Made by a program: the position numbers and the translations under genes
Shown here: positions 6,370-59,820 of the stretch, piece by piece
Position numbering within the stretch: position 1 is the stretch's first letter
Layout: every line of letters starts with the position of its first letter
NCBI GenBank assembly: GCA_964016885.1
Contig: OZ024743.1
Coordinates: 260,648,001 to 260,712,000 of the forward strand
Direction: 5' to 3'
From: Eledone cirrhosa
Lineage: Eukaryota
Length of the DNA stretch: 64,000 nucleotides
Notes under the pieces: model-generated
The model's input: only the letters and a program-made list of their open reading frames with translations
The model's database searches: none
What the model was told of the DNA's origin: nothing

Positions 6370-6448
6370 AAAGGGATGTAAAAACCATCCCTCCTCTACC
6401 AAAAGTACGGTAAGTGGTCTTTCCCATCTTTTCCACTCTATTTTAAAC

Positions 6449-9400
6449 ATGACCTCACTCAGAATAGGCAGCATAAATGCGCGTGGCTTGGGGTCGTCAT
6501 GGAAGCAGGGTCACCTGCTCAACGACCTCAGGTCACTAAACATAGATGTAGTGGCCATCAGCGAGACCAGAATCTCCGAAGCACGGGCCTTCGCACCGAT
6601 CTTCGGCGGCTACGATGTGTACGCATCTCCCAGCCGTCCTGGATCCGGTGGAGGAGTTGCTGTACTTTTTCGGAGAGGTTTGGATCTCGCCATACGGGCC
6701 ATCTTCCTGGACCCAGAGGGTAAGCTGGTGGTGCTGGACGTGACCAGCGGAGACGGGCAAGCTTTCAGGCTAGTGGCCGTCTATGCCCCGACAGGAGCAG
6801 GGCGGCCTGATTTCTTCCGGCGTCTGGAGACCTTTCTTGGAACGTCCCGCTCTTTAGTGTTAGTGGGCGACTGGAACGGGATCTTAGATGCACGCTGGGA
6901 CTGTGTGGGATTAGCGGATAGGGGTGGAGGGTGCAAGAGCCTCACCAACCTGCTCAGGCGTTTTGAACTGTCTGACAGGTACCGATTGGATTTCCCGAAT
7001 GTGCCAATGTGGACTTGGACAAACCGCATAGGGTCATCCAGATCATATCTAGATAGAGTATTTTGTAGGGAAATAGATAGGTCTAGCATAGGCTGTCCAC
7101 AATTCAAGATAGTCAGCTACACGGACCACAAATTCGTGATCTGTGTGCTTGACTTAGATAGGCTTCATAGACGAGGACCCGACTACTGGAAGCTAAACGC
7201 GTCCTTACCAGCGCGCAAGGCCTACAGAGACCGGATTAGCGAACTAGTTAAGCGGGCGTTGATGGGGGCCATCGTCAACAACAAGTGGTGGTTTGCTCTG
7301 AAAAGAGCGATTAGAATAGAATCGATTAGATTTAGTAAGGCTTTAGCAATAGAGAAAAATAGAGCAGAGGGAGAACTAGTTAGAAAATTAGACGAGGCGC
7401 TTAGCAAAGGCATTGCGACCGACGTGCTTGCGGCGAAATTGGCCCTTGACCAATTCTTCAATGCAAAGCACGAAGGCTGCATTGTCAGAGCAAGGGTGCG
7501 TGCTCTCAGACACGAGGGGACGAAAGCCGTTCAATGGGCCCGAGTGGCGGAGGCGCGTCGTGGCAACAAAGCCACGATCCGGTCTTTGGTGGACCACGAC
7601 GGGCGCATGCTACTCGATCCCGGGCAAATGTGTGAAGCTTTTCAGCGACACTTCGCTCAGCTGTTCGGGGGCAGCGGTGGGCCGGGTAGAGGGATGGACT
7701 TTAGTGTCTACCTCGACGGACTGCCGCGGCTCTCGGCCACTGAGGCGAAGTGTTGCGAAAAGCCGATAACAGCCGCTGAAGTAAGGGAGGCAATGACTGG
7801 CTGCACAAGGGGTAAATCGCCTGGTTTGGATGGTCTGCCCTATGAACTTTACGTACAGATGCCAGACTTGTTCGGAGGCCTCTTGGCGGACGTCTACTGC
7901 AACTGGCAACAGAACGGGAGAATTCCCAGTTCTGTGAGCCGAGGAGCGGTGGCACTGCTGAGAAAGGATCCGAACAAGGGGGATAACATAGAAAATTTCC
8001 GGCCCATAACTCTGCTAAACACAGAGTTTAAGATTTTGGCCAAGGTGCTAGCAAAGAGGTTGGCGCTTGTCGTTGGTGGTCTGGTGGGAGAGGCGCAGAC
8101 ATGCGCCATTCCCGACAGATCCATCCACGACAACCTCCACCTCATGCGATACATCGTAAAGAGGGTAGCTAGGGAACCTGGCACGGGTGGGTCCTTGATC
8201 AATTTAGATCAGTCGAAAGCTTTCGATAGGGTCGACCATCGTTACCTAGCGGCAGTCCTGAGGGCGGCTGGCTTTGGGCCCGTCTTCAGAGGCTGGATCG
8301 CTGCCATGCACAGCGACATCTGCTCTGTGGTGAGAGTGAACGGTCACCTGTCGGAACCGTTCAACATCATGCGCTCGGTCCGCCAAGGATGTCCCCTCTC
8401 GTCCCTCTTGTACGTATTGACTCTCGAGCCATTACTGCACAAACTGGAGACGTTGAGGGGGGTCCCGCGCGAACTAGGATGCGGAAGATCCGTATCAGCA
8501 TATGCGGACGATGTCACCGTAGTGGTGTCGAACGCCAAACACATCGAGGCGATCGGCACTACACTAAGAGAATACGAAGCGGTGACAGGAGCAATGATCA
8601 ACCAGGAAAAGTCAGTGGGCCTGCAGCTCGGCACCTGGAGAGGCAGGTCCATGCCGTCCAACAGCGTCGTCGGACGCTGGACGGACGGACCGGTTAAATT
8701 GCTAGGGGTCTGGTTCGGTCCGGACCTCCAGACGGACAAAAACTGGGACGAGGTGACGAGCAGGGTGGCTTCTCTCACCCAGAAATGGGCCGAGAGGAAG
8801 CTATCCCTGAAAGGTCGAGCGGAGGTGGCTAACGCGTACATCGCGTCCGTCATCTGCTACCGCCTGACCGTCGTACCTTGTCCTAAGCCTCGCCTGACTG
8901 TGCTGGAGCGTTTGCTCTTTCGCTTTTTGTGGAAGGGACGCGCTCCGATGGTCAGGCGGTCCATCTGTTGTCAACACCCGCTACGTGGAGGGCTGGGCAT
9001 GCCGTGGCTGATGATGCGCAGGCACGCGCTCAGGCTACGACATCTCCACCTCTTCCTCGACGGTGATCAGGTGTGGTCGCCGTTTGCTAGACGCGTGTTT
9101 CCCCAGCTCGTTTCCTTGACGGAGCTGCAGTCCTGGGTCAAGCGAAGACCGAGAGGGAGCGCCTGGAGACTGGAATGTCTTCAGGCGCTCACAGCCCTCG
9201 ACCAATCGGGCAATGTCATCGGTGGAAACTCCACCTCGGCGTTCTATAGAGGATTAGTGGAGGGGAAGAGCGACGACGTACTTGGGGAAACTCTAGGCGT
9301 CGACGAAAATCAACTAGCCAATCTCTTCGGAAGAACTTTCGGGCCAGGGCCTATGGACAACTTCCAGAAATCTCTGGCCTGGCAGTGCTACCGAGGAGCC

Positions 9401-9868
9401 TTGCCAGTTCGGGATAAACTCTACAGGCATGGAGGTGCCGTCAGCCGGGCATGTCCGAGATGCGCGCAGGGCGACGAAACCGTCCTGCACGCACTCGTCC
9501 AGTGTCCGAAAATTGCTGACTTGTGGGTTTATGTCGAACACCTGCTGTCGCGTTTAGGACGGATCCGGCTATCATCTGAGTCCATCGTGAGGATTGCCCC
9601 GCCCTCCTCCTTTAGCCGGGAAGGGCAGGCAGTTTTTATCTGCCTGGTGGCCATGGCGAAAGAGATAGTATGGTGGACACGTTTGAAAGGGCTGAAGACG
9701 AGCACTTACCTCTTCGGTGATGCTCTGATTGACTTTTTCAAATTTCATTTGAAAAGGAAAATCAGAGTAGAGAGGGAAGTGCTCTCTTCCCAGCATTTTG
9801 TTGAAAGATGGGTGAGAGAAGCAAGAATGGCCCGAGTGAATGGGCCTACTCTGAGCATATATCTGTAA
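6449..9868 (+). CDS. LINE ORF2: APE endonuclease, reverse transcriptase, zinc finger (1139 aa, intact)
   Basis: SINARGL, ISETR, VGDWN, SYLDR, YTDH; KSPGLDGLP, FRPITLLNTEFKILAK, LDQSKAFDRVDH, VRQGCPLS, AYADDVT; GGLGMP; CPRC...ETVLHALVQC. Confidence 0.97.
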   Translation: MTSLRIGSINARGLGSSWKQGHLLNDLRSLNIDVVAISETRISEARAFAPIFGGYDVYASPSRPGSGGGVAVLFRRGLDLAIRAIFLDPEGKLVVLDVTSGDGQAFRLVAVYAPTGAGRPDFFRRLETFLGTSRSLVLVGDWNGILDARWDCVGLADRGGGCKSLTNLLRRFELSDRYRLDFPNVPMWTWTNRIGSSRSYLDRVFCREIDRSSIGCPQFKIVSYTDHKFVICVLDLDRLHRRGPDYWKLNASLPARKAYRDRISELVKRALMGAIVNNKWWFALKRAIRIESIRFSKALAIEKNRAEGELVRKLDEALSKGIATDVLAAKLALDQFFNAKHEGCIVRARVRALRHEGTKAVQWARVAEARRGNKATIRSLVDHDGRMLLDPGQMCEAFQRHFAQLFGGSGGPGRGMDFSVYLDGLPRLSATEAKCCEKPITAAEVREAMTGCTRGKSPGLDGLPYELYVQMPDLFGGLLADVYCNWQQNGRIPSSVSRGAVALLRKDPNKGDNIENFRPITLLNTEFKILAKVLAKRLALVVGGLVGEAQTCAIPDRSIHDNLHLMRYIVKRVAREPGTGGSLINLDQSKAFDRVDHRYLAAVLRAAGFGPVFRGWIAAMHSDICSVVRVNGHLSEPFNIMRSVRQGCPLSSLLYVLTLEPLLHKLETLRGVPRELGCGRSVSAYADDVTVVVSNAKHIEAIGTTLREYEAVTGAMINQEKSVGLQLGTWRGRSMPSNSVVGRWTDGPVKLLGVWFGPDLQTDKNWDEVTSRVASLTQKWAERKLSLKGRAEVANAYIASVICYRLTVVPCPKPRLTVLERLLFRFLWKGRAPMVRRSICCQHPLRGGLGMPWLMMRRHALRLRHLHLFLDGDQVWSPFARRVFPQLVSLTELQSWVKRRPRGSAWRLECLQALTALDQSGNVIGGNSTSAFYRGLVEGKSDDVLGETLGVDENQLANLFGRTFGPGPMDNFQKSLAWQCYRGALPVRDKLYRHGGAVSRACPRCAQGDETVLHALVQCPKIADLWVYVEHLLSRLGRIRLSSESIVRIAPPSSFSREGQAVFICLVAMAKEIVWWTRLKGLKTSTYLFGDALIDFFKFHLKRKIRVEREVLSSQHFVERWVREARMARVNGPTLSIYL

Positions 9869-25444: not shown

Positions 25445-26659
25445 CGGAGGGAGAGTGAGAGAGAGAGAGAGAGACAGACAGAGAATATCTGTTGACATGA
25501 CAGTGTTGAGCTTTACATATACTGACATGTATGGTAACATTAAGAGAAACCTATCGAAAAGTGATGGTAAAGGCAAAGACCAGAAAACGTCTCGACAAAT
25601 GACAAAGCAACCATACTCTAGAATGTTCCAATGAACGCAGACACGAACATCATAACCAATCGAGCAAATACTGAGTCAAAGACCACAAAGAAAAATATGC
25701 CTTCTAAATGACGTATCACCCCATACAAATAAATGGAGAAATTATCAAAATATAAAGATCTGGAAAGAGAGATAATCCGAATGTAGATAACGAAAACAGA
25801 AACAAGCTCTTGGACATATTATGTAACCTACTGTTAATACAATAGAAATTATAACACCAACACTGCACACACCCAAGACCCGCACATTTGGCCTCGGTAA
25901 TGCAGTGACAGCTCGCAAAGAAGATTAGAATACTAATGATTTCGAATTTAGGCACAAAGCCTGAATTGGTAAAAAAATATTAAATCGACTCCAGTACATG
26001 ACTGGTGCGTTATTTTGTCGGCCTAGGAAGGATAAAAGATAGGCGTTGACTTAATAGGGCGTAAAGGGCCGTAACTCTCTGCCGCGAAGTATGGTGTCCG
26101 ACTCATTGCCCTGGCTTCTGATTTAGGCACAAGGCCAACAATTTTGGGAAGAAGAAGAAATTTGGGAAGTCAGACACATATATGTGTGTGGGTGTGTGGA
26201 TGTGAGTATTGTAGAATATTATCCGGCAAAAATGACGTGGATTATATCTGACCTTTATAGATTTATGTGTAGGGTCGATTATAGAGAGATACTTAGATAG
26301 CGATACGATAGGACTGGCCACAGTATGCCATCACAGAGTGTGAGAGAGAGGAAGATATCAAGGCACACAGTTGCTCACATTACCACTTACCAAACAAATC
26401 TACGAATCAATACAGATCGAACCTTGAGCTGAGCAAGAGTAAAACGCGCATCACTATTCATCACTACTCAATAAACGTAATGAAGACATAATAAATAGTC
26501 CTTTTTATTATATATATATATATATATATATTCATTAGTTAAGCAAAACAAGACCACAAATTTCACAAGGAAGACATTTTTAAAAGATTGTCAACATATT
26601 TTAGTTTGATGTAAGGAATGTAGAGAATAATAATAATAATATTAATAATAATAATGTCC

Positions 26660-26778
26660 GTTTACAATTGTTTCGCTACTCCATATAATATTTCTGGATC
26701 AGATGACTATATATCATTATTGATCTGGTTCAGTTGAAAATAATTAACATATTTAAAAACAGAGCGGCTCATCGGAAC
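26660..26778 (-). ncRNA. Hammerhead-like ribozyme with extended stem II (PLE3)
   Basis: GUU-CCGAUGA-GCCGCUC...about 80 nt...GAGUAGC-GAAAC-AAUU-GUA-AAC. Confidence 0.55.
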
Positions 26779-27179
26779 TTCAAAGGAATATAAATTAAAA
26801 TAAGGAGAGAATGTTACATAATATAATGTTCCATATATTCGTATTTCACTATGGTGTCCTGGTTGTATCAGTTGTCTTCCATAATCAAGCAGTATTCATC
26901 TGTCGAGGCTGCATTGTGTGAGATCTGCCTATGAGTAACAAGATGGCTGCCAAAGGACATTTTTACCTTACTAATTAGAGGGTGGTTTCAGGGGAAGTAA
27001 CTCCTCGGGAGATTAGAAATTGTGGGTAGTTTATAGTTGAGTGCTAATTTTTAAATTTTTTAATTGAGAGACAATGTAGGGAGGTAACTTATAATTATCT
27101 GAGTTAGTTATAGCTATTTAACTTATTAGCTACAAGTAAAAATGGGGCTAGATGACTATGTTGGGTCAAATATTCGATT

Positions 27180-29007
27180 GGCGAAGGAATTAGCCCTTCG
27201 ATGTTGACAGCTAATAGTTACCCCCGTTATATCGTTAATCGGTAGAGGTCGTGATAGAGTTATGTAATATGCTTCGATAATACAGAGATCACAAGATTTT
27301 CTTCGTCCATTGAACGGTTGGGCCCTAGCCACGATATCCCATTTTAGTGAGTGTTCAATGTTGCTTAATTTAAGGTTTTTAATGAGCCTAGCTAGAGATG
27401 TCGAACATCTGTAACTAGGGTCTCGGAAGGAAAAAGAGTGCGCGTTATAGCGTACCTTAAAAGGGTTAGAGGTAGACCCGATATAAGAGGTGGTATTCGA
27501 AGCAGTTTTAACAGTGCACCTATAGACTATGTTGGGTGTCAGGCAGTGTCCATTTAATGGGCATGCATTAGGGTAACGGCAGTTGCAGTTGCTTCTGCGG
27601 TTAGTGAGAGTAGGGTAGTTTAACCTAAGCGGGTGGTCAGTGCTAGAAGGATTAGATGGGGAGGTGTGCTACTAGAGTAATTATTGGTGTAGTGGCGTGG
27701 TGTATTTGATAGGGGTGGTGGTACCGCGGTGTGGGAGTTATACTGTCTTAGTTTATGATGGTTACTGAATGCGATGTGGCTAGCTAGGTTAGGTGTTGTG
27801 GAGAATGAGATTTTAATGTTATTTTTATTAAAGAGTTTGTAATATCTATGGTTGGGGGGGGGGTTAGATAGGATAGAGAAGAAGCGTTTAGTGGCTAGAT
27901 TAGATGAGAATGGGGGGTTAAGCCAGGTGATATTTCTAGGTCTATTCCTTCTAGGGTTCTAGTGGAGTTGGTAGGGGCCTTCCTATGGTTATTATTACCT
28001 GGGGATTTGTTATTTGTCATCCCATTTCTCATTCCTATTCTAGGGTTGATTTTTAGTTTGCTACTTGGAGTGGGGAGCAGGCCGCTGCCACCATTAAACT
28101 TCCCTGTATAGGTGCTGATACTGCTAAAATTCCGGCGAATCTGGCTATATGCTAATGTATTTCTTGTTCTAGTGTTAAGTTTATTATGGTGAATTGCTGT
28201 GTTATGGCATTTAGGTATGTAGTAAATGGATTGTTCATAACCAGATTCAGAAAGAGCCTTATTATAATATTGTGCATGGTTTATAAATATCTCCTCATTT
28301 GCTGATAGCATGGAGATCCTATACGAGATAGATTTGATTACAGCTCTGATGACTGCCGGTGGGTGGTTAGAGTGTGGGCTAATATATGTGAGTATTTCAC
28401 CTGGTTTATGGTAAGGGTAATATAGGTTATTGTTGAGATCCAGGGTGACGTCTAAGAAGTTTACTACTTTATGGTTCGGCTCGATGGTGATAGATAGACC
28501 GTTATTTTTAAAGAATCTATGTAATTGTTTTCTTAGCAAACCAATGCCCCGATTAGTGCAATTGTGGACTGCAAATAGGGCGTCGTCTTTGTATATTCCG
28601 CCTTGCAAGGGTTGGATTTCTGCTCTGATGTTATGTAATAGGTAAATTCCAACTAAATCGGTGATTTGTGCAGAGTCACTTGAGCCCATCGTGATGTCAA
28701 AGTTGTCTGTTCTATCTTTTCTAGTCCAGAGTGCTCCGTTGAATTCAATGATAGTCTGCCTAGCCATAAGTATGATGTTAATCTCATTATTGATTATGTC
28801 CGAGTTGGTGCTGGCTAGAGTTAATGCTTTGTTGGGCAGTTCCGGGGTTATTGAAGCGTAATAGCTGTCGATGTCAAATTGGATGAACCTCATAGATTGC
28901 TTGGACCTTAGATCGGAGAACCATCTAATGACTTGGCCGGTGTTGGACCACAACTTGTAGGTGATATCATCCCGTAGCCCAGGGATTATCCTATCAAGGA
29001 TGTTCTT
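27180..29007 (-). pseudogene. PLE3 RT plus GIY-YIG, 5'-truncated and frameshifted
   Basis: Motifs as listed for PLE3; the first roughly 27 aa of the listed 397-aa ORF come from the inverted arm. Confidence 0.85.
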
Positions 29008-29381
29008 ACTGAACCAGATCAATAATGATATATAGTCATCTGATCCAGAAATATTATATGGAGTAGCGAAACAATTGTAAACGGACATTATTATTATTAA
29101 TATTATTATTATTATTCTCTACATTCCTTACATCAAACTAAAATATGTTGACAATCTTTTAAAAATGTCTTCCTTGTGAAATTTGTGGTCTTGTTTCGCT
29201 TAACTAATGAATATTTCCAGCTCTGCGCGCTTAACTTCTGCATGAACCCAGCCACATAGCTGCTTTCTACTGCATATTGCACACTGAGCACATGCTTTTA
29301 CGCTTTGGCTTCTAACTAATTCACCAATCTCTCCTCTCCTATCTCCATCTCTCTCTTTAAGATTGGTTACTCTTGAACTAA

Positions 29382-33529: not shown

Positions 33530-34793
33530 ATATTTGTTTATTGAAAAAAAACAACAAAGATTTAATATAATAGGTCTGTTTGGGAACAGGTTTTGAATTG
33601 ACCAATAGAAAAGTAGTAAGGGGTCAAGTTGATAGAATAGTAGTAGTAGAAATTTAATTTAGGGGTAGAGGAATGCAGACTTCAGTTTAGAATGGAAAGA
33701 GTATTTTGAATGAAAAGATTACTTTGGGGATGAAAATAGGTCAAGTCGGTGAAAGGTACACGAAAATTTGATGTTATTAAAGAATAATGCTAATGTTAAA
33801 ATCTAAGGAGAATAAAATTTTACGATAAATGTGTTAGTGAAAAATATCAAACTTATTTAAAAACATAAGGAATTTAGATCTATAAAAATAAATTAAATTA
33901 ATTTAATTGCTAGGTATATTTATAGGGATAAATTTATATTAATTCATATAGATATGATAAATAAGAGTTAGATGTTATTAAAGAATGTTGTTAAAAACGA
34001 AGGAAAACATTTTTTTTTGGGGGGGGGGGGGGTTAAATGTATTAGTGAGAAATGACAAGCTTATATAGATTACAAGGAATTTAGATTCATAACAGGAAAT
34101 TAAAATAATTTATATGTATACTTATTGGTATAAATTTTAGGAAAAGATAGCTGTAAAAGGGAAATAAAATTATGCAGTTCTTAGTAGTAGAATATTAATT
34201 ATAGGTTAACTAATTTTAAAAAAGTAATTATAATAATTTGTAAAATATAAGTGTATATTAATTAGGCTTATAATATTTGAAAGTTTTTCTAATTCTATGA
34301 TTGCACGATATAATTAATTCTTGTCGCTTATTTAATAGGATATCCTTAGATTTCATTATTTCAAAAAGTTCCTGGGAACATAATCTACATTCATATCTAT
34401 TATTTTGATAAGGGGTGGCCCTTTTGAGCACACTCCAGGTCAGGTTATAATCGATATTCTTTTTTCTATAATTATTAATTATATCAGCTAACGATGTTGT
34501 ATTAGCTAATGCGGCATTTTTAAAACTGTGTTTGTGGGTATTAAATCTTACTTTACATTTCTAACCTTTCATCTAACCAGGATATATTCGATAAAAATGC
34601 GACCTTTTATAACGAAGCTTTAGCTAGAAGCGGCCACAAAAACAAATTAGTATATATACCTTGCACCAATAATACTACAAACATACAACCCAATATTACC
34701 AACAAACACCAAATGAAATATACACACCTAAATGCCACTCACACTATGCCCCAAAAATACCAACTTAAAACTTAATTTCTCTACCTCTTCTAA

Positions 34794-35707
34794 TCTATAT
34801 ATATAAAACTGTGGTTGTCTGTCTGTCTATCGATTTTTGGCACACATCTCCTCTTAGAATCTCTCACGGAATTGCACCGAAATTGCTATACTTGTACATT
34901 GAGCGCTAGCGAAGACATCGGAAAAAAAAAATTTCAAATTCACCCACCCTATGTGACGAAATCGAATATAATGTATCGATTTTTGAGCGTAAGTTATCAG
35001 TTATTTCCCTTTGTTCTGTTTACATTGAGCGTCTTACGTAAAAAATTACGCTGGCTTTAACAGTTGTCGAGCCAGCAAAATATTGACCTGCAAAATTCAT
35101 CAGTTCGAACACTAAGCTTCCGTTTTGCTTCATTTCCATTTAAAAGCATTTTAAAACAATATTTTTACTTGAAAACAAGTCTATTTAAAGACTACGTAAA
35201 ACAAGCAAATATTTCGTCGTTAGGCGTGCAGACAGACAGTCGTGCAGACAGACAGTCGTGCAGAGAGGTGATATAGGCGTGCAGACAGACAGTCGTGCAG
35301 AGAGGTAATATAGGCGTGCAGACAGACAGTCGTGCAGAGAGGTGATATAGGCGTGCAGACAGACAGTCGTGCAGAGAGGTGATATAGGCGTGCAGACAAA
35401 CATAACTGATAATTTGGTTACGCTAATGTTTTTCTCTGCGTTGCAGTGTTTACATTTTCGATCTTTGTTAATAAATAACCAGTGCAGTTTCTATCCCCAG
35501 CATCCTCTTTTGTTATAACATTCGGGTTATCGTTATGTTTTCTTAACTTCATAAGGCATATTGTTGGTTGAGGGAATATTAATCAAAAACACCACATGCA
35601 AGTCTGCACAGTAGACACTACAGTTTTTAAGCCAAGAAAGAAACTTAACATTGTAACTTTAACACAGCTACTGAGCGACCCCGAGCAACGCCGGGCTTTA
35701 CTGCTAG
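34794..35707 (+). mobile_element. Non-autonomous Helitron H1 (914 bp) with internal 37-bp tandem repeats
   Basis: A|TCTATATATATAAAACTG...CCCGAGCAACGCCGGG...CTAG|T; unit TAGGCGTGCAGACAGACAGTCGTGCAGAGAGGTGATA in about 4 copies. Confidence 0.9.
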
Positions 35708-36507
35708 TATACAATATAATAACTTTCAAAAAACCATTCATCCTAATATTCCAATATATGTTAATAACAAAATTCCTAATAAACAGGCTAAAACACCTAA
35801 ATCAGTGAATCTAACTAAACATATGTGTAATAAAATCACTAATACTAATTCTCTTAGTAAACATCAGGATACATCGTATAAAAATAAAAAACAACATCGA
35901 AACCGTAATAGACGAGTTACTTGGTATAATGCTCCATTTAATCTACAAATTAAAGATAATATACCTAAAAAAATGTTTACTATCCTAGAGAAAAACTTCC
36001 CGCCAAACCATAAATACCATCAAATTTTAAATAGATCAACGGTCAAATTCTCCTACTCCACAACCAAAAATATACAACAAAATATAAGTGCCTACAATAC
36101 ATATAAATGTAAAAAAAAAACATGAATATACCACCAACACATAAAACTAACCATAATACTAAAATAAACCACAGCAAACCACCATCTCATTCACATACAA
36201 CAAGTCGAGAAAATTCCAAACCTAATTTGACTACCTCCCCTGATATAACATTCACGAAAGGTTGTAACTGTAGAAACAAAGCAAATTGGCCACTAAAAGG
36301 AAATTGCCTTATTAATTGCTTTATATAAATGTAAAATTAGCACTAAGGACCCAACTTATTCATATATAGGAGCTACTTCTAACCAATTTAAAATAAGATT
36401 TAATACCCATCGAAAAAATTTTGAATACATCTTATCTTTTCATGATATTTGGATTACATTGAGTTCTTCATATGGATTGGACACTACCGTATATTTTGGT
36501 AGATTTA

Positions 36508-40916: not shown

Positions 40917-40957
<41 letters not shown>

Positions 40958-40969
<12 letters not shown>

Positions 40970-41206
40970 ATAGCTTTCACCGTATTTTTAACTAAAGGAA
41001 TTTTAGCTTGATAATGGGGTTTAGAACCCTCAGATAAATGGAAAAAGATGAGTATTGATGTACATACGTCAATACTCATCTTTTTCCATTTATCTGAGGG
41101 TTCTAAACCCCATTATCAAGCTAAAATTCCTTTAGTTAAAAATACGGTGAAAGCTATATATTTTCTAATTTCAAACTCGCTCACTGTTTCAAAACATACT
41201 TACTTG

Positions 41207-41207
<1 letters not shown>
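40958..41207. repeat. Near-perfect palindrome (arms of about 105 bp, centre 41063-41064) plus tail; relative of the 271-bp tRNA-bearing repeat
   Basis: 40958-41062 mirrors 41065-41169; the right arm extends about 38 nt further; (TA)n both sides; shares TACGTCAATACTCATCTTTTTCCATTT with 56263 onward. Confidence 0.88.
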
Positions 41208-41263
<56 letters not shown>

Positions 41264-49534: not shown

Positions 49535-49638
<104 letters not shown>

Positions 49639-49852
49639 ATATTTGGGGAGGGTCATATTTGCGTAATATTGCCAGAATTAATAACAGAACACACTCACTG
49701 TTTGGTTGGTTTTCGCTTCTCGCTGTCTTTTATATATATATATCTGCGATCTAACTTACTCGGTCCTCAATGTTGCCATTGACTGACCGGCGGTCAAAAA
49801 TAATACAGATACAATATAGACACAAACACATATATATAGTTTACATAATTTA

Positions 49853-49890
49853 CATAAATCTTTCGTTGCACATCTGCAACATCGTCAGTG
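49853..49890 (-). ncRNA. Minimal hammerhead ribozyme (PLE4 left arm)
   Basis: Reverse complement of 53802-53839. Confidence 0.68.
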
Positions 49891-50150
49891 GTGTTATATT
49901 CATTGTTCCTCCTGTTGTGTTGTATGTCTACGCCATTTTTTTTTGTTCAGTCTGTCTATATATTTATTTATTTATTTGCTTGTTTGTTTATCTTATTTTA
50001 TTTTGTCTTCTTTGCGCATGCGTTTGCGTGTGTGTATAGTGTGATGTGTGACTAGTGTGTATAGTGTTGTGTCTGCTGGGTGACTAGTGTGTGTTTATGT
50101 GCTTGTGTATGTATTTATTTATCTTATTTTATTTTATTTTATTTACTTAT

Positions 50151-52757
50151 TTATACTTCTCTTAGGTCAGTGTTGTTTGTTTGGGTGTTGTTGTTGTTCC
50201 ACTCATTCTTTCTGTTTAGCTTTGGTCTTCTAATTTCTATTTCACTGGCCTCTCTGATTTGCCTATCTGCTGGGTCATTCCTATGTTTAGATATTATTCT
50301 AATTTCTATGTTGTCTATGTTACCGTCATGTTGTTGTCTAGCATGTTCGTATAGTACTGACCCGTTTTTTCGTCCTTTTAGTTCCCCCCAGTGTTGGTCT
50401 ATCCTTTCACCTATGCTACGAGCTGTCTCACCTATGTATGTTGTTGTCATGTTTCTGCAAGTACCCTCTGTACATCTTATGCTATAGACTACGTTTCTAG
50501 TTTTACAGTTTATCCGGGGGTTCACCTTACAAATGATACATTTCCTATTGGTACAGTGGGTTTTCTTAAAAGGGTAGGTTTTGCTGATCAGGGATTTTAT
50601 GGTGGTTCCTGGCTTTTCTACCACCTTTATTTTTAAGTGGGTCTTTCTCAGGGCCTTTCTACACTGGTTAGCTAATTTCCCTCCAGGGATGGCGTCCACA
50701 AACATGACACTCTGATATCTCTGGTTGTCGTACCATGATGTGGCCTTCCCTATCTTATGTCTAGCCCTATCTAAGCTATTCCATGATTTGCTCCTGTATA
50801 GTGGGCAAATTCCTTTCATGTCCAGTTCTATGAGGGTCTTATACTTTTCCATGGCTCCTTCGTATACTCTGACTCTGTCTCTTTGGTTGTAGCCAGAGAA
50901 CTGCATGCGGTTGATGAAGTGTTGGATGTGTCCTTCCATTTCTGTTGGGTCGCACATGCTGGACACATTCTTCATCACTCGTACCAAATCTGCGATCAGA
51001 ATATTAAACTTAGCACTACTGGACATTGCTGAGTTTTTGAGTATCAGGTATTTGGAGGCCATGGGTTTAGCATAGTGTGAGTGGAGAATTTGGGCTCTCT
51101 CGTCTATAGTGTTAATCCAGAGTTCTGTGTCTAATACAGGTAGTCTATTGTTAGGGTGTTTGGAAGGGAAGTCTATAGTTACAGTTATACTCTGGTGTAT
51201 GGAATTAGCTATCTGCTGGATGCTTTCCATCGTGCTACGTTCTAAATCAAACTTGTTAGTACTCTCTAGTGGGGGTGTTCTTATAACTATATTGATATCG
51301 TCTACATAACGAGAGTACATGATGAGGTCTATGGAGCTTTCATTAAGGAGATCTTTAAGTCTCCTTTCCCACCATACCATGAAAAGGTTGGCAACATCAC
51401 CAGCTATGCTGACGCCGATGGCTGCTCCCTCATTTTGGGTGTAGATTTTCTCATTGAACTTAAATATGTGGCCCTTTAGGGTAGTTTTGATACTAGCCCC
51501 TATTGCATGTGCGACCATTTTTCTTACCTGATCAGTGTTTTGGGGGGTCCGTATAGCTTTGGTCCACCCAATCCACCTTCCTATGGGAGTCTTTTTAGCC
51601 ATTGAGGTTATGGTGGGGGGTCTACCTCTTATAGGTCTACTAGGGCAGAAACATCTAAGGTCATGGCTGTCTAGGTAGTCAGTGTCGTAGGTAAGTCTAA
51701 GTAGGAGGCCCAGTTCGTCTGTGTCGACGTCGCAGAACTCCACCTCACTCTCAATGATCATCTCCACACATCTTTTCACAGCAAAATCAATGTTAATGGA
51801 TGGGTACAGTGACACCACATCCATGCTGCCTATTATGCAGTTGGATAGGCTCCTGTTTTTGTTGCACTCACTGATTCTGCTGAGGAGGTCCTCTGTACTT
51901 TCACATACATCTGGGGACATCTTGATTATGGGGCGTATAACCATTGAGAGGAAGTAGGAGATCCTGTAGTTGCTAGCTATATTAGCTCCGCATACGGGTC
52001 TTGTTGGTGGTCCTGTTGTCGGGTCGTCGACTGTCTTGTGGTCCTTGCGGAGCCCATACAAGGGTGGTATGCCATTGTTAGACGCCTGGAAGTTGTTGGC
52101 AGTGCGTCTGCTTGGCTTTAGGATGTCAGTCCACATCATCATGTGAGCGTTGAGGATTTTTTCTCTCCCATCGTGTGTTAGTTGTGCAACTTCGCTCGTG
52201 TTGGTGATGTGGGGTTGCATTGCCTCGATGTAGTTCGGCATGCTATCTATTGACATCCTACCAGACTTATCTGTGGGTAGACACACTACCTCACCATCCC
52301 TTGTGCGCTGCTTGAGGCTAACCAAGCCTTCTACAGGTTTTATCCCAAGTTGTTGGGCCTCTGGTCTGCTCTGTCTCATAGTGTACCTGTCTACTACTTG
52401 TCTAATCTTATTTCTAGCTATGGTGAACTGTGCCTCCGTCTCGTCATCTATTTGCTGTGGTATGCAAACTCTTTTATTAAAGGGTAACCTCGTAGGATAG
52501 ATATTACCCATCTTATATGTTTTGTCAGCTGGGTTGAAAAATAGTTTCTCTAAGGGGTTGTCGTTATTTCTATCGTCATAGTTGTGTGTGTTGCTATTAT
52601 TGTTATCATGGTGGTTGTTGTTGTTTCTATCATTAGCATTAATATTATTATTGTTATGATTGCTAGATGTATTGTTGTTTACTTCACCGTTATTGTTGTT
52701 GTTGTTACTGCTATTTCTACCATTGTGGTTGTTGCTATTATTATGTTTCTTGTTTTT
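50151..52757 (-). CDS. PLE reverse transcriptase plus GIY-YIG endonuclease, uninterrupted frame but 5'-truncated
   Basis: LPTDKSG, PPLYGLRKDHK, RPVCGA, SMDVVSLYPSI, QNEGAAIG, RYVDDI, LPVLD, YAKP; NVVYSIRC...YIGETARSIGERIDQH...RQIREA...PKLN. Confidence 0.9.
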   Translation of the reverse strand, partial: KNKKHNNSNNHNGRNSSNNNNNNGEVNNNTSSNHNNNNINANDRNNNNHHDNNNSNTHNYDDRNNDNPLEKLFFNPADKTYKMGNIYPTRLPFNKRVCIPQQIDDETEAQFTIARNKIRQVVDRYTMRQSRPEAQQLGIKPVEGLVSLKQRTRDGEVVCLPTDKSGRMSIDSMPNYIEAMQPHITNTSEVAQLTHDGREKILNAHMMMWTDILKPSRRTANNFQASNNGIPPLYGLRKDHKTVDDPTTGPPTRPVCGANIASNYRISYFLSMVIRPIIKMSPDVCESTEDLLSRISECNKNRSLSNCIIGSMDVVSLYPSINIDFAVKRCVEMIIESEVEFCDVDTDELGLLLRLTYDTDYLDSHDLRCFCPSRPIRGRPPTITSMAKKTPIGRWIGWTKAIRTPQNTDQVRKMVAHAIGASIKTTLKGHIFKFNEKIYTQNEGAAIGVSIAGDVANLFMVWWERRLKDLLNESSIDLIMYSRYVDDINIVIRTPPLESTNKFDLERSTMESIQQIANSIHQSITVTIDFPSKHPNNRLPVLDTELWINTIDERAQILHSHYAKPMASKYLILKNSAMSSSAKFNILIADLVRVMKNVSSMCDPTEMEGHIQHFINRMQFSGYNQRDRVRVYEGAMEKYKTLIELDMKGICPLYRSKSWNSLDRARHKIGKATSWYDNQRYQSVMFVDAIPGGKLANQCRKALRKTHLKIKVVEKPGTTIKSLISKTYPFKKTHCTNRKCIICKVNPRINCKTRNVVYSIRCTEGTCRNMTTTYIGETARSIGERIDQHWGELKGRKNGSVLYEHARQQHDGNIDNIEIRIISKHRNDPADRQIREASEIEIRRPKLNRKNEWNNNNTQTNNTDLREV

Positions 52758-52800
52758 AATAAGATTAGACAAGTAGTAGACAGGTACACTATGAGACAGG

Positions 52801-53541
52801 TACAACCAAAGAGACAGAGTCAGAGTATACGAAGGAGCCATGGAAAAGTATAAGACCCTCATAGAACTGGACATGAAAGGAATTTGCCCACTATACAGGA
52901 GCAAATCATGGAATAGCTTAGATAGGGCTAGACATAAGATAGGGAAGGCCACATCATGGTACGACAACCAGAGATATCAGAGTGTCATGTTTGTGGACGC
53001 CACCCCTGGAGGGAAATTAGCTAACCAGTGTAGAAAGGCCCTGAGAAAGACCCACTTAAAAATAAAGGTGGTAGAAAAGCCAGGAACCACCATAAAATCC
53101 CTGATCAGCAAAACCTACCCTTTTAAGAAAACCCACTGTACCAATAGGAAATGTATCATTTGTAAGGTGAACCCCCGGATAAACTGTAAAACTAGAAACG
53201 TAGTCTATAGCATAAGATGTACAGAGGGTACTTGCAGAAACATGACAACAACATACATAGGTGAGACAGCTCGTAGCATAGGTGAAAGGATAGACCAACA
53301 CTGGGGGGAACTAAAAGGACGAAAAAACGGGTCAGTACTATACGAACATGCTAGACAACAACATGACGGTAACATAGACAACATAGAAATTAGAATAATA
53401 TCTAAACATAGGAATGACCCAGCAGATAGGCAAATCAGAGAGGCCAGTGAAATAGAAATTAGAAGACCAAAGCTAAACAGAAAGAATGAGTGGAACAACA
53501 ACAACACCCAAACAAACAACACTGACCTAAGAGAAGTATAA
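52801..53541 (+). pseudogene. Inverted duplicate of the PLE4 GIY-YIG region (233-aa ORF from 52840)
   Basis: Matches the C-terminus of the minus-strand ORF except DATP versus DAIP. Confidence 0.9.
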
Positions 53542-53801
53542 ATAAGTAAATAAAATAAAATAAAATAAGATAAATAAATACATACACAAGCACATAAACA
53601 CACACTAGTCACCCAGCAGACACAACACTATACACACTAGTCACACATCACACTATACACACACGCAAACGCATGCGCAAAGAAGACAAAATAAAATAAG
53701 ATAAACAAACAAGCAAATAAATAAATAAATATATAGACAGACTGAACAAAAAAAAATGGCGTAGACATACAACACAACAGGAGGAACAATGAATATAACA
53801 C

Positions 53802-53839
53802 CACTGACGATGTTGCAGATGTGCAACGAAAGATTTATG
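53802..53839 (+). ncRNA. Minimal hammerhead ribozyme (PLE4 right arm)
   Basis: CA-CUGACGA-U-GUUGCA(GAUG)UGCAAC-GAAA-GAUU-UA-UG; stem I is short. Confidence 0.68.
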
Positions 53840-54101
53840 TAAATTATGTAAACTATATATATGTGTTTGTGTCTATATTGTATCTGTATTATTTTTGACC
53901 GCCGGTCAGTCAATAGCAACATTGAGGACCGAGTAAGTTAGATCGCAGATATATATATATAAAAGACAGCGAGAAGCGAAAACCAACCAAACAGTGAGTG
54001 TGTTCTGTTATTAATTCTGGCAATATTACGCAAATATGACCCTCCCCAAATATAACAATATCTGTTTCGACACACGATTTCATATAAAAAACCTCGCAAA
54101 A

Positions 54102-54175
<74 letters not shown>

Positions 54176-54522: not shown

Positions 54523-54738
54523 AGCGATCAGGCCTTAGAAACAACTATAATACTAAATAACTATTCTGTTCTTGGCAGCGATTGTCCCAGCGCATTGCTG
54601 GTGCCTTGTTTTGGGGCCCGGAGAGTGGAGAGCCGTTGCTCTTTGCTGTAAAGCAAACAATTATTATTATTATATAAAAACTGAACTGGAAAAGTCAACA
54701 GTGACATGATTTTGATTTTGTATCAGTACTGACGATAA

Positions 54739-55647
54739 TCTATATATATAAAACTGTGGTTGTCAGTCTGTCTATCGATTTTTGGCACACATCTCCTCTT
54801 AGAATCTCTCACGGAATTGCACCGAAATTGTTATACTTGTACATTGAGCCCTAGCGAAGCCATCGGAAAAAAATATTTCAAATTGACCCACCCTATCTGA
54901 CGAAATCGAATATAATGTGTCGATTTTTGAGCGTAAGTTATCAGTTATTTCCCTTTGTTCTGTTTACATTGAGCGTCTTACGTAAACAATTACGCTGGCT
55001 TTCTCAGCGTTTAAAATGACATTAACACAATACACGAACAGTTGTCGAGCCAGCAAAATATTGACCTGCAAAATTCATCAGTTCGAACACTAAGCTTCCG
55101 TTTTGCTTCATTTCCATTTAAAAGCATTTTAAAACAATATTTTTACTTGAAAACAAGTCTATTTAAAGACTACGTAAAACAAGCAAATATTTCGTCGTTA
55201 GGCCTGCAGACAGACAATCGTGCAGACAGACAGTCGTGCAGAGAGGTGATATAGGCGTGCAGACAGACAGTCGTGCAGAGAGGTGATATAGGCGTGCAGA
55301 CAGATAGTCGTGCAGAGAGGTGATATAGGCGTGCAGACAGACATAACTGATAATTTGGTTACGCTAATGTTTTTCTCTGCGTTGCAGTGTTTACATTTTC
55401 GATCTTTGTTAATAAATAACCAGTGCAGTTTCTATCCCCAGCATCCTCTTTTGTTATAACATTCGGGCTATCGTTATGTTTTCTTAACTTCATAAGGCAT
55501 ATTGTTGGTTGAGGGAATATTAATCAAAAACACCACATGCAAGTCTGCACAGTAGACACTACAGTTTTTAAGCCAAGAAAGAAACTTAACATTGTAACTT
55601 TAACACAGCTACTGAGCGACCCCGAGCAACGCCGGGCTTTACTGCTA

Positions 55648-55648
<1 letters not shown>
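54739..55648 (+). mobile_element. Non-autonomous Helitron H1, third copy
   Basis: A|TC...hairpin...CTAG|T; one fewer 37-bp unit than 34794-35707. Confidence 0.9.
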
Positions 55649-55730
<82 letters not shown>

Positions 55731-55871
55731 AGAATATTTTCGAAACAGCGAGTGGGTTTGAAATTATTAGAAATGTAAGCTATCGCCGTATTTTGACTAA
55801 AGAAATTAAAGATATTATTTAGCCTGATAGTAGAGTTAAGAACCCTCGGAGAAATGGAAAAAGATGAGTAT

Positions 55872-55943
55872 TGACGTACATGGGAGTCCCACCCACATCT
55901 TTGGTTATCCGGACCACTGTGCTACCATTTACACCAACACATC
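55872..55943 (-). pseudogene. tRNA-like sequence with mutated T loop
   Basis: Same as 56198-56269 but TTCGA is changed to TGGGA. Confidence 0.7.
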
Positions 55944-56197
55944 ACCCGTCTTTTTCCATTCAAATTAGAAGCTATAAACTTAGCGACTGTAATGTCAAGT
56001 AAGAATATTTTCGAAACAGCGAGTGGGTTTGAAATTATTAGAAATGTAAGCTATCGCCGTATTTTGACTAAAGAAATTAAAGAAATTATTTAGCCTCATA
56101 GTGGGGTTAAGAACCCTCGGAGAAATGGAAAAATAATCTTACTTGACATTACAGTCGCTAAGTTTATAGCTTCTAATTTGAATGGAAAAAGACGGGT

Positions 56198-56269
56198 GAT
56201 GTGTTGGTGTAAATGGTAGCACAGTGGTCCGGATAACCAAAGATGTGGGTTCGACTCCCATGTACGTCA
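56198..56269 (+). tRNA. tRNA-like cloverleaf (anticodon position GGA), probably not a decoding tRNA
   Basis: Acceptor GATGTGT/GTACGTC plus A; D arm GTGT/GCAC; anticodon arm TGGT-CCGGATA-ACCA; T arm GTGGG-TTCGACT-CCCAT; TTTTT about 10 nt downstream. C at position 33 and a short variable loop are atypical for tRNA-Ser. Confidence 0.7.
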
Positions 56270-56539
56270 ATACTCATCTTTTTCCATTTCTCCGCGGCTT
56301 CTTAACCCCACTATCAGGCTAAATAATTTCTTTAATTTCTTTAGTCAAAATACGGCGATAGCTTACATTTCTAATAATATATATATATATATATATGGTG
56401 TGTGTTTTTTGTATGCATGAGTGTTGGTGTGTGAGTGGCGTGTGTGTTTGTATGCATGAGTGTTGGTGTTTGAGTGAGTGTGTGTGTGTCTGCTGTGAGT
56501 GTCAATAATTGTGTTTTTTTTTGGGGGGGGGGGTTATGA

Positions 56540-59500
56540 CCATGCTGTAAAATAGAGAGGTAGAGAGGGCCCATGAGTCCAGTAAGACATGCTCTATGGT
56601 GCTGGTGTCACAAATAAAAGCACCCAGTCCATGCTGTAAAGTGGCGCTGGTGTTAGGAAGGGCATCCAACCAGTTTATCAATGCCAAAATGATTATAAGC
56701 ACAGCAACAAGTATATAGGAACAACAAAAATATGAAGACATCGCATCTCAGAGTTGCAACACTTAATAATGTTGGCACTCTCACAGGTAGATCTGCTGAA
56801 ATAGCGAAGATGCTGGAGAGAAGGCATGTGCTGCGTGCAAGAGGTAAGATAGAGAGGTGCCTCTGCGAGACTAGTCGCAGGCAAACATCTTAGCTATAAG
56901 CTTTTCTGGGTAGGTAAGGATGATGGGTTAGGGGGAGTAGGCATTTTCCTGGCTGAGAGATGGATCAATAAGACAATAGAGGTAGTTCGAGTTAGTAATC
57001 GAATAATTAAGCTTATATTAGTTGTAGGCCAGAGACTACTGACAATCATCTCTGTTTATGCTCTCCAAGCAGGCCTAGGCAAAGAAGAGAAAGACTGCTT
57101 TTACGAGCAACTCTTACAAACAACCGCAATGTCAGAGGACTGAGACATCGTTATGCTAGCAGGGAACTTCAATGGTCATGTTGGACAGCTCCAGGATGGT
57201 TACACTGGGGTACATGGTAGGCACGGTTACGGCTCAAGAAATGAAGAAGGAGTGAGACTTCTTGAATTTTGTGATGCAAGTACACTGACTCTTTGCAACA
57301 CTAACCTCCAGAAAACTGTCAACCACCTAATAACCTACAAATCAGACGAGCACATAAGCCAGATTGACTTCTTACTAGTTAGGCAGCGGGACAGGCAGGT
57401 GGTGTCAAATACCAAGGCATACCCAGGGGAAGAATGTACCCCACAGCATAGGTTAGTCGTTAGTGATATCTCAGTAAGCAAGAGATGGAATGAGACATAC
57501 AGGAAGGTGTGGAGAAGAAAGGTCTGGAAGCTAAAAGACCTTTCACTAAAATACAAATTTAGGAAAGCCCTTCAAGATGTGTATGACGAAAAAGAAGACG
57601 ATTTAGAGACGTATGACAGATAATAACTGGAATTTCTTACGTGACAACTTACTGCAGGCTACTGATGAAACTTGTGGCTGGAGCAGAGCTCCTACCAGAC
57701 AAAGAGTGACCTGGTGGTGGAACAGCTCAGTAGATAAGGTCATTAGAGACAAAAGACTAGCATGGAAGGCTTGGAGAAAGGGTGGGAGTAGAGAAGGATA
57801 TACAGCCGCTAAGAGAGAAGCTAGACGTCAGGTGTACTTAGCACGCAGGGAGGTGAGAGTAGGAGGTTTGCCAATGTTCTGCGACGGGAAGATCAGAGGC
57901 GTGCGGTGTTCTACATTGCAAAGCAGTGTGTCAATGCAAATCAGGATGTTGTTGGAGATAAATGCGTCCGGAATGATGCCGGTGTACTTAGTGTCACGAA
58001 TGATCAGAAAAAAGAGGCCTGGAAATGTCATTATGAGAGACTGGTGAATGTGGAGAACGAATGGGAGAGAGAGATATTACCCTCAGTAGGTCCGATAGAG
58101 GGACCAGCTATTGAGATTGACGAATATAGGGTCCAAGAGGCAATTAAGGAAATGAAAAATGGTAAGGCTGCTGGATTGTCGGGGATAGTTGGTGAGATGC
58201 TGAAGGCATCAGGGGACGTAGGCACTAAACTGGTTGCACGCATCATCAATCAGGCTATATATGGTGGTGTCATACTCAAAGACTGGTGCAACAGTATTCT
58301 CATAAATTGCTACAAAGGTAAAGGGGATGCTCTGGAGAGGAGCAATTATAGGGGCATAAAGCTGATGGATCAGGTTATGAAAGTGGTAGAAAGGATATTA
58401 GCACAACTAATTAGAGAAAGGGTCAAACTAGATGAGATTCAGTTTGGTTTTGTGCCTGGGAAGAGTACAACAGATGCCCTCTTCTTGGTGAGACAATTAC
58501 AAGAGAGGTTCTTAGAGAAGAATAAGCCACTATACTTAGCCTTTGTTGACCTAGAGAAGGCCTTTGATAGGGTACCCCGATCTGTCATCTGGTAGTCCCT
58601 AAGGAAACTAGGTGTTGAGGAATGGCTTGTGAGGACAATGCAAACTTTGTGCAGAGGTGTTGTCAGTAAAGTCAGGGTAGGAATGGAGTTTAGTGAGGAA
58701 TTTCAGATACAAGTGGGAGTACATCAAGGTTCGGTCCTCAGCCCTCTCTTGTTCATTATAATCCTCGAAGCCATAACAGAGGAGTTTAAGACTGGCTGTC
58801 CATGGGAACTTCTCTATGCTGACGATCTGGTTCTTATAGCAGAATCAGTAGAGGAGCTAGAGAATAAATTCTGGGTATGGAAACAGCAGTTGGAAGCAAG
58901 AGGACTGAAAGTGAACCTAACTAAGGCAAAAGTGTTGATGAGTAGAAAAGAGGACAAAACTCTGATTCTGTTAGGGAAATGGCCATGTTCGATAAGCAGA
59001 AAAGGAACTGGCATAAATTCTATAAAATGCACACAATGCAGATCCTGGGTACACAAGAGATGTAGTGGGATAGCAGGCAAACTAACAGGTAGGGTGAAAT
59101 ACATATGCAGTAGATGTACAGGGAAATTAGACAGTAGAAGTCGCATTGATAGACACATTTTTTCAAATGCAGTCGGCTGCTATAGAAGTGGTGGATAGCT
59201 TCCGGTACCTAGGAGATCAGATTAGCATGAGAGTGGGGTGTTCCGAGGCCATAGTATCTAGAATAAGGACGGGTTGGAAGAATTTTAGAGAGCTGCTTCC
59301 TCTGCTAACGAAGAAGGGTTTCTCCCTGCGTACGAAAGGCCGGTTATATGATGCCTGTGTGAGGAGCGCGGTGCTGCATGGTAGTGAGACATGGGCAGCA
59401 ACTGCAGAGGATATGCAACGGCTGGAGAGAAATGAGGCAAGCATGCTCCGTTGGATGTGCAATGTCAATGTGCGTGAACGACCCAGCCTGAATGTGTTGA

Positions 59501-59820
59501 GAGAGAAACTGTGTCTGATAGGGATAGAATGTAGTGTGCGAGAGAGGAGACTGAGGTGGTATGGACATGTGATGCGCATGGAGGATGACCGATGGGTGAA
59601 GAAGTGCCAGGAAATGCCAGTTGAAGGACGACGTGGTAGAGGTAGATCACGAAAAAACATGAGAGGTGGTGGTGAGAACAGAACTCAGATCGCTGAAGCT
59701 CACGGTGGAGATGACGAAGGATCGTGACAAGTTGAGAGGTGCTGTGCTGAATAAGACCCGTCCCACCCTTGCATGCAGGGAAAAGCAGACGTAAAATGAT
59801 GATGATGATGATGATGATGA

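Follow-up and report, generated by a model that had tools for sequence, protein, structure and literature searches.

A dispersed tRNA-bearing tandem repeat family of Eledone cirrhosa with a Penelope-like footprint and a possible link to tRNA splicing

Metazoan non-LTR retrozymes are built of units of 150-450 bp, have been proposed to be mobilised by Penelope-like elements (PLEs) and form circles that are closed by RtcB, some of their hammerheads being dimer-only (PMC7229834, Cervera and de la Pena 2020, in the part of that paper available to us). PLE insertions, according to the available sections of PMC8557442, can be recognised by partial tandems, a truncated copy in inverted orientation, a tail of 30-40 nt and insertion into (TA)n; the same sections describe Naiads as having no canonical hammerheads and as targeting (TA)n. 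In the accessible text of PMC11167929 the PLE tail is tied to two internal RT start sites. In the tRNA introns of flies the proximal pair is conserved as C-G, the bulge as 3 nt and the distance between that C and the 5' cut as 6 nt, and a fully paired helix lowered the yield of tricRNAs in flies (PMC6614914, excerpt). As stated in the available part of the review PMC10485636, no human mRNA target of the tRNA splicing endonuclease (TSEN) is known.

Here we analyse a locus in a 64,000-nucleotide stretch of Eledone cirrhosa DNA (assembly GCA_964016885.1, contig OZ024743.1, positions 260,648,001 to 260,712,000; hereafter the window), the features of which are collected in Table 1. An earlier note on this DNA had described a repeat with an internal cloverleaf, arranged as 1.5 tandem units plus an inverted unit with the 3' ends outward in (TA)n, and this arrangement was confirmed. 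The direct repeat 55728-55862/55999-56133 has a spacing of 271 and an identity of 97%, the inverted arms 55763-56011/56130-56378 are 97% complementary, and (TA)n flanks the locus on both sides. The left arm ends in TCTTAC and the right arm, which ends in CTAATAAT, is 35 nt shorter, the very difference that had been estimated. Against the Rfam gathering cut-off of 29 bits the tRNA-like fold on the + strand scores 42.4; the - strand copy, with its damaged T-loop, also lies above the cut-off, and ARAGORN calls the former and not the latter. The complementary flanks that clasp the tRNA proved longer than first described, pairing over 17 positions with one mismatch and one G.U as a prolongation of the acceptor stem. 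A T5 run (TTTTT, 56279-56283) lies within the 3' clasp strand. The locus is without poly(A), and the lack of poly(A), TSD and hammerhead claimed for it was borne out both here and in the copy census described below. We number positions from the first tRNA base (t1 = 56198).

Table 1. Positions in the window of the parts of the tRNA-bearing locus and of a second locus of the family
Feature	Position	Strand	Remark
(TA)n target microsatellite, left	55649..55727	.	
Long arm, 1.5 units, t82 via unit junction to t216	55728..56133	-	3' end outward into (TA)n
tRNA-like module, damaged T-loop copy	55872..55943	-	34.2 bits
Helix P3, 3' strand	55745..55751	-	long arms only; between two 3'-end classes
Inverted short arm, end at t181 (CTAATAAT)	56137..56378	+	35 nt short of long arm
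5' clasp strand	56181..56197	+	G at 56194 = position -4, commonest single 5' end near tRNA start
tRNA-like cloverleaf	56198..56269	+	non-working tRNA: C33, T37 in anticodon loop
Anticodon-loop bases 32-35 CCGG, self-complementary	56229..56232	+	predicted central helix of bulge-helix-bulge
Predicted cut	between 56234 and 56235	+	
T-loop TTCGACT, A58 at 56254	56250..56256	+	most copies 5'-truncated just 3' of A58
3' clasp strand with T5 run	56272..56288	+	
Hairpin P2	56317..56346	+	stem kept in subfamilies A-D, loop variable
Helix P3, 5' strand	56352..56358	+	one pair C-G in A, U-A in B and C
(TA)n target microsatellite, right	56379..56396	.	
Second family locus, subfamily B	40957..41210	.	two arms joined in T-arm, no whole tRNA

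The (TA)n tract to the left of the tRNA-bearing locus is abutted by a repeat (54736-55650, with similar stretches at 34791-35718 and 19973-20440) that has a GC-rich hairpin, a CTAGT end and an internal 37-bp tandem and that may be a non-autonomous Helitron. Motifs read by eye label 6311-9868 as a long open LINE-type ORF2 (1,185 aa from stop to stop) and 57144-59727 as a broken RTE-like ORF. The window also holds four PLE insertions with inverted arms (49543-54172, 20615-22534, 22731-24918 and 26528-29214); by eye, the arms of the window PLEs differ by about 42-46 nt, and two of the four have minimal hammerhead cores 130-290 nt before their 3' ends. Among four ORFs near the locus we found weak matches below the Pfam cut-offs, two to GIY-YIG and one to RT. 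Outside the window, many loci of the genome (L014, L183, L290 and L002, for example) are flanked by short palindromic PLE 3' remnants of several families, with hammerhead-like cores, nested in the (TA)n tracts of those loci.

The locus belongs to a family of at least 4,700 arms in four subfamilies, A-D, as found by exact-pattern search of the whole genome. Exact 22-25-mers, which take in A, B and D, C not being counted by patterns, matched 2,450 arms of A, 1,975 of B and 339 of D genome-wide. Since these thousands of exact matches stand against 0 for reversed controls, the repeat is a family and not a chance occurrence. The natural units of the subfamilies measure 271, 260, 290 and 291 nt, and they are short, low in GC, non-coding and tandem, as the definition of non-LTR retrozymes asks. 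Subfamily B includes copies that are 99% identical, and D copies have 84-87% identity to the query copy. Two tRNA modules stand in tandem at 187 places in the genome; the first 100 of these 187 matches include satellite-like head-to-tail arrays on C28 at about 19.44-19.63 Mb (subfamily C) and on C4 at 61.010-61.012 Mb (L543-L546), which are possibly source loci or the product of secondary amplification. Most loci are dispersed and not clustered, arm lengths vary without the fixed terminal inverted repeats of a MITE, and the copies do not occur in arrays only, as those of a satellite would. The earlier note had named LINE-type tails with TSDs and a want of tandem or inverted forms, or a satellite or MITE identity, as grounds for giving up its reading; what we found is that tandem and inverted forms dominate and that most loci are dispersed despite the two arrays.

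The module itself is not that of a functional tRNA gene, with C, T or G at position 33, T at position 37 in A-C and a variable anticodon; in C the acceptor stem is distorted. Subfamilies A-C carry both the A and the B box, and D has T at position 58 in 63/68 copies. A search with RF00005 for the parent tRNA scored 63 candidates and returned 16, none of them close (best alignment score 41 of about 72). L281, L282 and L284 are genuine-looking tRNA-Thr genes, L282 and L284 lying in a cluster with decayed copies. Ten of the 16 matches belong to an unrelated repeat of about 1.7 kb (L283 and L285-L293, at about 1173-2860 in the oriented loci), the copies of which are 91-95% identical; it has one tRNA-like module with a varying anticodon and CTGGCAA or CCGGCAA loops, partly complementary flanks and an internal inverted repeat.

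Copies were collected as the earlier note had suggested, and in the sample taken from them end points, flanks and arm pairing agree with a PLE footprint. The sample was drawn from the first 100 listed places per pattern with a few of these places left out, and comprised 84 loci of A and 76 of B, those of both subfamilies all on C1, and 50 of D on C1-C2; removal of duplicates left 150 A and B loci for the footprint census. In this A/B sample 99/150 loci are inverted with the 3' ends outward, 0 with the 3' ends inward, and 51 have a single orientation. A long and a short arm are combined in 89/99 inverted loci (expected share 0.50, p 1.6e-17), and in 77 of these 89 the arms are offset by 30-57 nt, with a mode at 35-37. 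The 3' ends are internal and discrete (t163, t171, t179-181 and t215-220 in A; t155-158, t170 and t204-211 in B), both classes flank the 3' strand of helix P3, and 232/249 enter (TA)n or (CA)n. The 5' ends are variable, and 10/94 arms of A and 20/92 of B exceed one unit. There is no LINE-type 3' tail in the sampled copies and no real TSD, the 3/51 single-orientation loci that were flagged each showing a microsatellite word. Partial tandems, inverted copies with outward 3' ends, a 30-40-nt tail and (TA)n targets match the description of PLEs in the available sections of PMC8557442, and the long and short arms match the two RT start sites of PMC11167929, which argues for mobilisation of the PLE type; read from this footprint, the enzyme is very probably that of a PLE, and the copy census thus upholds what had been proposed from the single locus. 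A partner PLE sharing the 3' end was sought among the window PLEs and 30 of the 150 listed GIY-YIG loci, a sample outside which most PLE families of the genome and the Naiads lie, and none was found (best E 0.16). Short word matches to the tails of window PLEs and to the 3' end of Naiad_Obim, seen by eye, were judged to be chance.

No CTGAnGA hammerhead motif occurs on either strand of the four natural units and no ribozyme family was matched in Rfam scans, so the type I hammerhead that each unit of a non-LTR retrozyme should have is absent. In B a CTGAGG...GAAA stretch resembles a hammerhead, but neither stem I nor stem II could be made out by eye and a motif search gave no core. There is good support for regarding the family as a PLE-type element that is non-autonomous, bears a tRNA module and has no ribozyme.

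Units in tandem join without a seam, and arms are up to about three units long. Tandem units share 4.3 (A) and 1.3 (B) rare variants per kb and inverted arms 2.7 and 1.8, against 0.23 and 0.15 for random pairs, a 9-18-fold excess of the tandem units over the random pairs. This sharing weakly suggests that one sequence was copied repeatedly; three loci supply 23/28 of the shared rare variants in A, and gene conversion could be their source. The copy census supports the idea of a multimeric or circular template, put forward in the earlier note. Both clasp strands have 2 extra nt in D, and where purines change in the 5' strand G.U pairs are preserved, so that the clasp probably forms in RNA extending across the unit junction. 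Helix P3 has one double-sided change, from C-G to U-A. The cloverleaf pairs hold in 95.7% of cells, the changes being one-sided, and covariation within the cloverleaf is not above that of shuffles (175/500). T5 runs, one of which the earlier note had held against simple Pol III transcription, are found in every subfamily. Together with the loss of the B-box A58 from D, they argue that the tRNA is not accounted for by a Pol III promoter alone.

Away from the tRNA, 5' stops form a background of about 5-10% of arms per 15 nt. At t54-69, just 3' of A58, stop 49/66 arms of A and 39/67 of B (88/133 together), and only 8/41 of D (p 1.9e-7 against A and B). The peak in A and B coincides with the CATG palindrome where inverted arms join; D keeps both CATG and the T-stem, with T in the place of A58. 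Just 3' of G9, at t10-24, stops are found in 11/23 cases in D against 3/39 in A and B (p 4.6e-4). Of 78 arm pairs 40 are informative, and in 38 of these the two arms either both stop or both pass (p 1.6e-8). The tRNA modifications m1A58 and m1G9 block RT. The T-arm stop is consistent with an obstacle on the RNA template itself, for which m1A58 is the simplest candidate, with m1G9 possible in D, and m1A58 is in our view the probable cause, but a looser T-loop fold, the age of D or a different RT could also produce the pattern. Misincorporation at A58 is not clearly raised in A (5/190 against 81/3,041) or in B (6/122 against 40/2,016).

Another cluster of 5' ends lies at the tRNA start, where 54/142 tRNA-containing arms begin between -9 and +10. 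Exactly at -4 begin 11/142, all of subfamily A, and at -1 begin 10, while none begins at -10 to -21; by intervals, 24/142 start at -2 to +3 and 17 at -3 to -6. Many 5' ends keep 1-6 leader bases. With its pile-up at -4 and not at +1, this cluster is compatible with a Pol III start or with stalling at the clasp, but not with RNase P. The role of Pol III promoter that the earlier note had considered for the tRNA is plausible as a start in subfamily A only. At the RNase Z site, t70-84, 5' ends are not in excess (7/73, 6/73 and 0/41), and they do not pile up at position 38. Apparent clusters at -31 and -41 were an artefact of aligning subfamily C to A/B references. A minor cluster inside the anticodon loop (t31-34 in B, at L146, L223, L227, L238 and others; t32-33 in D) recurs on the second pass and could reflect stalling where the palindromic helix forms or a modified C32.

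Bases 32-35 of the anticodon loop read CCGG in most copies of A and D, CTGG in C and older A/B copies and CGCG in younger B copies, and one dimer has CTAG in both units. In a sample not selected on the loop, 59/76 loops are self-pairing (CTGG 34, CGCG 18, CCGG 6); those that are not are scattered, and CTGA (5) needs independent origins on the tree. In a tree calculated without the loop the CGCG copies fall together (93/92) within the CTGG copies, with a bootstrap that had not settled. CGCG represents a two-base change relative to CTGG, and among the 256 tetramers CCGG ranks 1st in duplex gain (-9.1 kcal/mol), CGCG 2nd (-8.3) and CTGG 14th. Weak loops are not significantly enriched among double-tRNA copies (p 0.09), and no subfamily chimera breaking at 37/38 was seen by eye among 149 copies. 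Since a real tRNA-Thr gene (L282, loop CTAG) and the unrelated, non-tandem repeat (CCGG and CTGG loops) of the same genome are also self-complementary at 32-35, the palindrome may be inherited, and the case for it therefore rests largely on one double change.

When two such loops pair, a 4-bp helix is predicted between two 3-base bulges (36-38). The predicted fold of a two-unit RNA is nested, the clasp joining unit 1 to unit 2 and the tRNAs swapping halves. This swapped fold is the free minimum for dimer L410 and is lower in energy in 12/14 in-register natural dimers (median -2.3 kcal/mol), a set taken from the first 30 of the 187 matches after 5 out-of-register dimers had been dropped. Other foldings favoured the swap in 5/6 in-register dimers and in 6/11 doubled units; longer stretches folded without the register filter favoured it in 3/12 natural dimers, and the probability of the central helix exceeded 0.5 in only 3/11. 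The energy margin of the swap is small and depends on the stretch folded. The swapped dimer, as predicted, presents the features of a TSEN substrate (a proximal C-G pair, 3-nt bulges and a tRNA body), and its geometry would match that of fly tRNA introns with C32-G35 as the proximal pair.

We tentatively propose that the family is a dispersed, non-coding tandem element of 260-291 bases which a Penelope-like reverse transcriptase would copy from an RNA circle that TSEN may excise from a two-unit transcript and RtcB close. A locus with two tandem tRNA modules would be transcribed, and the 3' clasp of unit 1 is predicted by folding to pair with the 5' clasp of unit 2, so that the tRNAs would swap halves and bases 32-35 of both loops would form the 4-bp helix flanked by the 3-base bulges. 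TSEN would then cleave each unit at 37/38, and with the two bulges cleaved precisely one unit would come free, its ends joinable by RtcB like those of retrozyme monomers; RtcB would circularise it. A PLE protein, to judge from the footprint, would prime internally around helix P3, at two sites with 30-57 nt between them, and insert into (TA)n. RT mostly stops at the T-loop, likely at m1A58, which would give short dead copies, and the remaining templates would be read through to regenerate multimers. The window locus, with one tRNA per arm, would under this splicing model be a dead copy. Speaking against such cutting are the lack of a 5'-end pile-up at position 38 and of chimeras broken at 37/38, and the lower yield that a fully paired helix gave in flies. 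Should the proposal hold, which we rate at somewhat less than even, a class of retroelement would hijack host tRNA splicing, with excision of one unit by TSEN and circularisation by RtcB replacing the hammerhead, and its truncations would record m1A58 and possibly m1G9. The earlier suggestion that a tRNA stands where retrozymes have a ribozyme may hold by way of the tRNA splicing endonuclease rather than of RNase P/Z.

Nearly as likely as a circle made by TSEN and RtcB is that linear multimers serve as templates unprocessed, the tRNA of the PLE-mobilised element being an internal Pol III promoter or a passenger of Pol II read-through, as in Sm-alpha without its hammerhead or in Cassandra and Helenus without LTRs. 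Such a reading is possible: G(-4), the start of 11/142 tRNA-containing arms, is a purine that follows a pyrimidine and lies 11 nt ahead of the A box, with no starts at -10 to -21, and these -4 ends cannot come from a circle. Locus L170, which begins at -5 in one unit and ends at t217 in the following one, would be a self-renewing dimer, the 187 double-tRNA tandems are possible sources, and PAc inserts from uncleaved RNA in vitro (PMC11167929, accessible text). However, Pol III would have to read through the T5 runs, D amplified despite the missing B-box A58, and the -4 peak is confined to A and could be a stall at the clasp helix. Unprocessed templates also leave the kept palindrome, the clasp and the sharing of rare variants between units unexplained. 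The same palindrome data would be accommodated if the loop paired two RNAs for a dimeric PLE RT and nothing was cut, and both the predicted dimeric state of PAc (PMC11167929, in the part available) and the predominance of two-armed insertions would agree with such a kissing dimer. We nevertheless consider it unlikely, as the two arms look like copies of a single template and insertions with two arms are also made by ordinary PLEs, which have no tRNA.

The release of unit-length RNA at the tRNA ends by RNase P and/or RNase Z, as imagined in the earlier note, could account for the whole cloverleaf being kept and for the arms with starts between -2 and +3, some of these perhaps being +1 ends that microhomology has blurred. 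We found it unsupported and regard it as improbable, given that t70-84 shows no peak, that many ends keep leader bases, 17 arms starting at -3 to -6 and 11 exactly at -4, that leader and trailer are paired by the clasp and that the acceptor stem is distorted in C. Still less probable is a self-cleaving ribozyme of an unrecognised kind, in the non-tRNA part or at the T-loop, that makes the RNA ends and of which the T-arm cluster would be the real RNA 5' end. Hairpins P1-P3 are conserved and this cluster is sharp and linked to the template, but Rfam yielded no ribozyme match, the sense strand has no hammerhead core, and the cluster weakens without A58 and shifts next to G9 (11/23 against 3/39). 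That the family is not mobilised by a PLE at all, being an ordinary SINE, MITE or satellite, seems to us very hard to credit: the satellite-like arrays on C28 and C4 and the want of a partner among the PLEs sampled would fit, but the variable 5' ends, fixed internal 3' ends, long and short inverted arms, lack of tail and TSD and dispersed loci speak against it.

We found no description of such a family, nor of the use of TSEN by a retroelement, in a search of full-text literature that had subscription papers, Dfam and Repbase outside its range. According to one partly available source there are 893 recently active unclassified SINE families in O. vulgaris, and the present family may already be catalogued as an unclassified SINE in Dfam, Repbase or the repeat library of PMC13282606. 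Our results extend the known cargo of PLEs to ribozyme-free, tRNA-bearing elements, and the pairs of long and short arms display two-site PLE priming in vivo in thousands of copies. If the splicing model were true, circular RNA would arise in a new way, animal TSEN would have a substrate other than tRNA, and tRNA splicing would be put to selfish use. Whether or not that model holds, the contrast between copies with and without A58 suggests that RNA modifications can be read from the truncations of retrocopies.

Ohshima and Okada are said to have described tRNA-derived SINE families from octopus in 1994. Such SINEs resemble the present family in their head with A and B boxes, and some copies of the family start just before the tRNA; however, the family has no LINE-type tail or TSD and is tandem and inverted, and it is by structure, not by sequence comparison, that it is set apart from the octopus families. 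The TRIMp3 elements Cassandra, Helenus and Ajax likewise have a sequence derived from a small RNA inside a repeated non-autonomous unit, but they are LTR elements with PBS and TSDs (PMC10886601, available part), whereas here the 5' ends are variable, TSDs are lacking and the footprint is that of a PLE. Chlamys PLEs such as MRC1 share with it non-autonomy, partial tandems and the PLE footprint; they also share 3' sequence with an autonomous PLE, which the present family does not do with those sampled, and no tRNA module is described for them in the available sections of PMC8557442. The tricRNAs (PMC6614914 and PMC10485636, as far as their available text goes) are alike in the C-G proximal pair, the 3-nt bulge at the 3' site, the cut after 37 and the use of TSEN and RtcB, all predicted for the present case, but arise from an intron in one tRNA gene, whereas here the intron would be a whole unit of a mobile element between two intron-less tRNA look-alikes. 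Sm-alpha of Schistosoma has a Pol III-type promoter inside a tandem unit as well and needs at least two copies to propagate; it differs in its active hammerhead, of which the present family has none (PMC6765202, accessible part). In metazoan non-LTR retrozymes we find the same non-coding, low-GC tandem units, in dimers to long arrays, but a hammerhead in the place of the tRNA-like module, and circles that are demonstrated where ours are proposed (PMC7229834, part available). While it fails the hammerhead test that defines both, the family works like a retrozyme or Sm-alpha.
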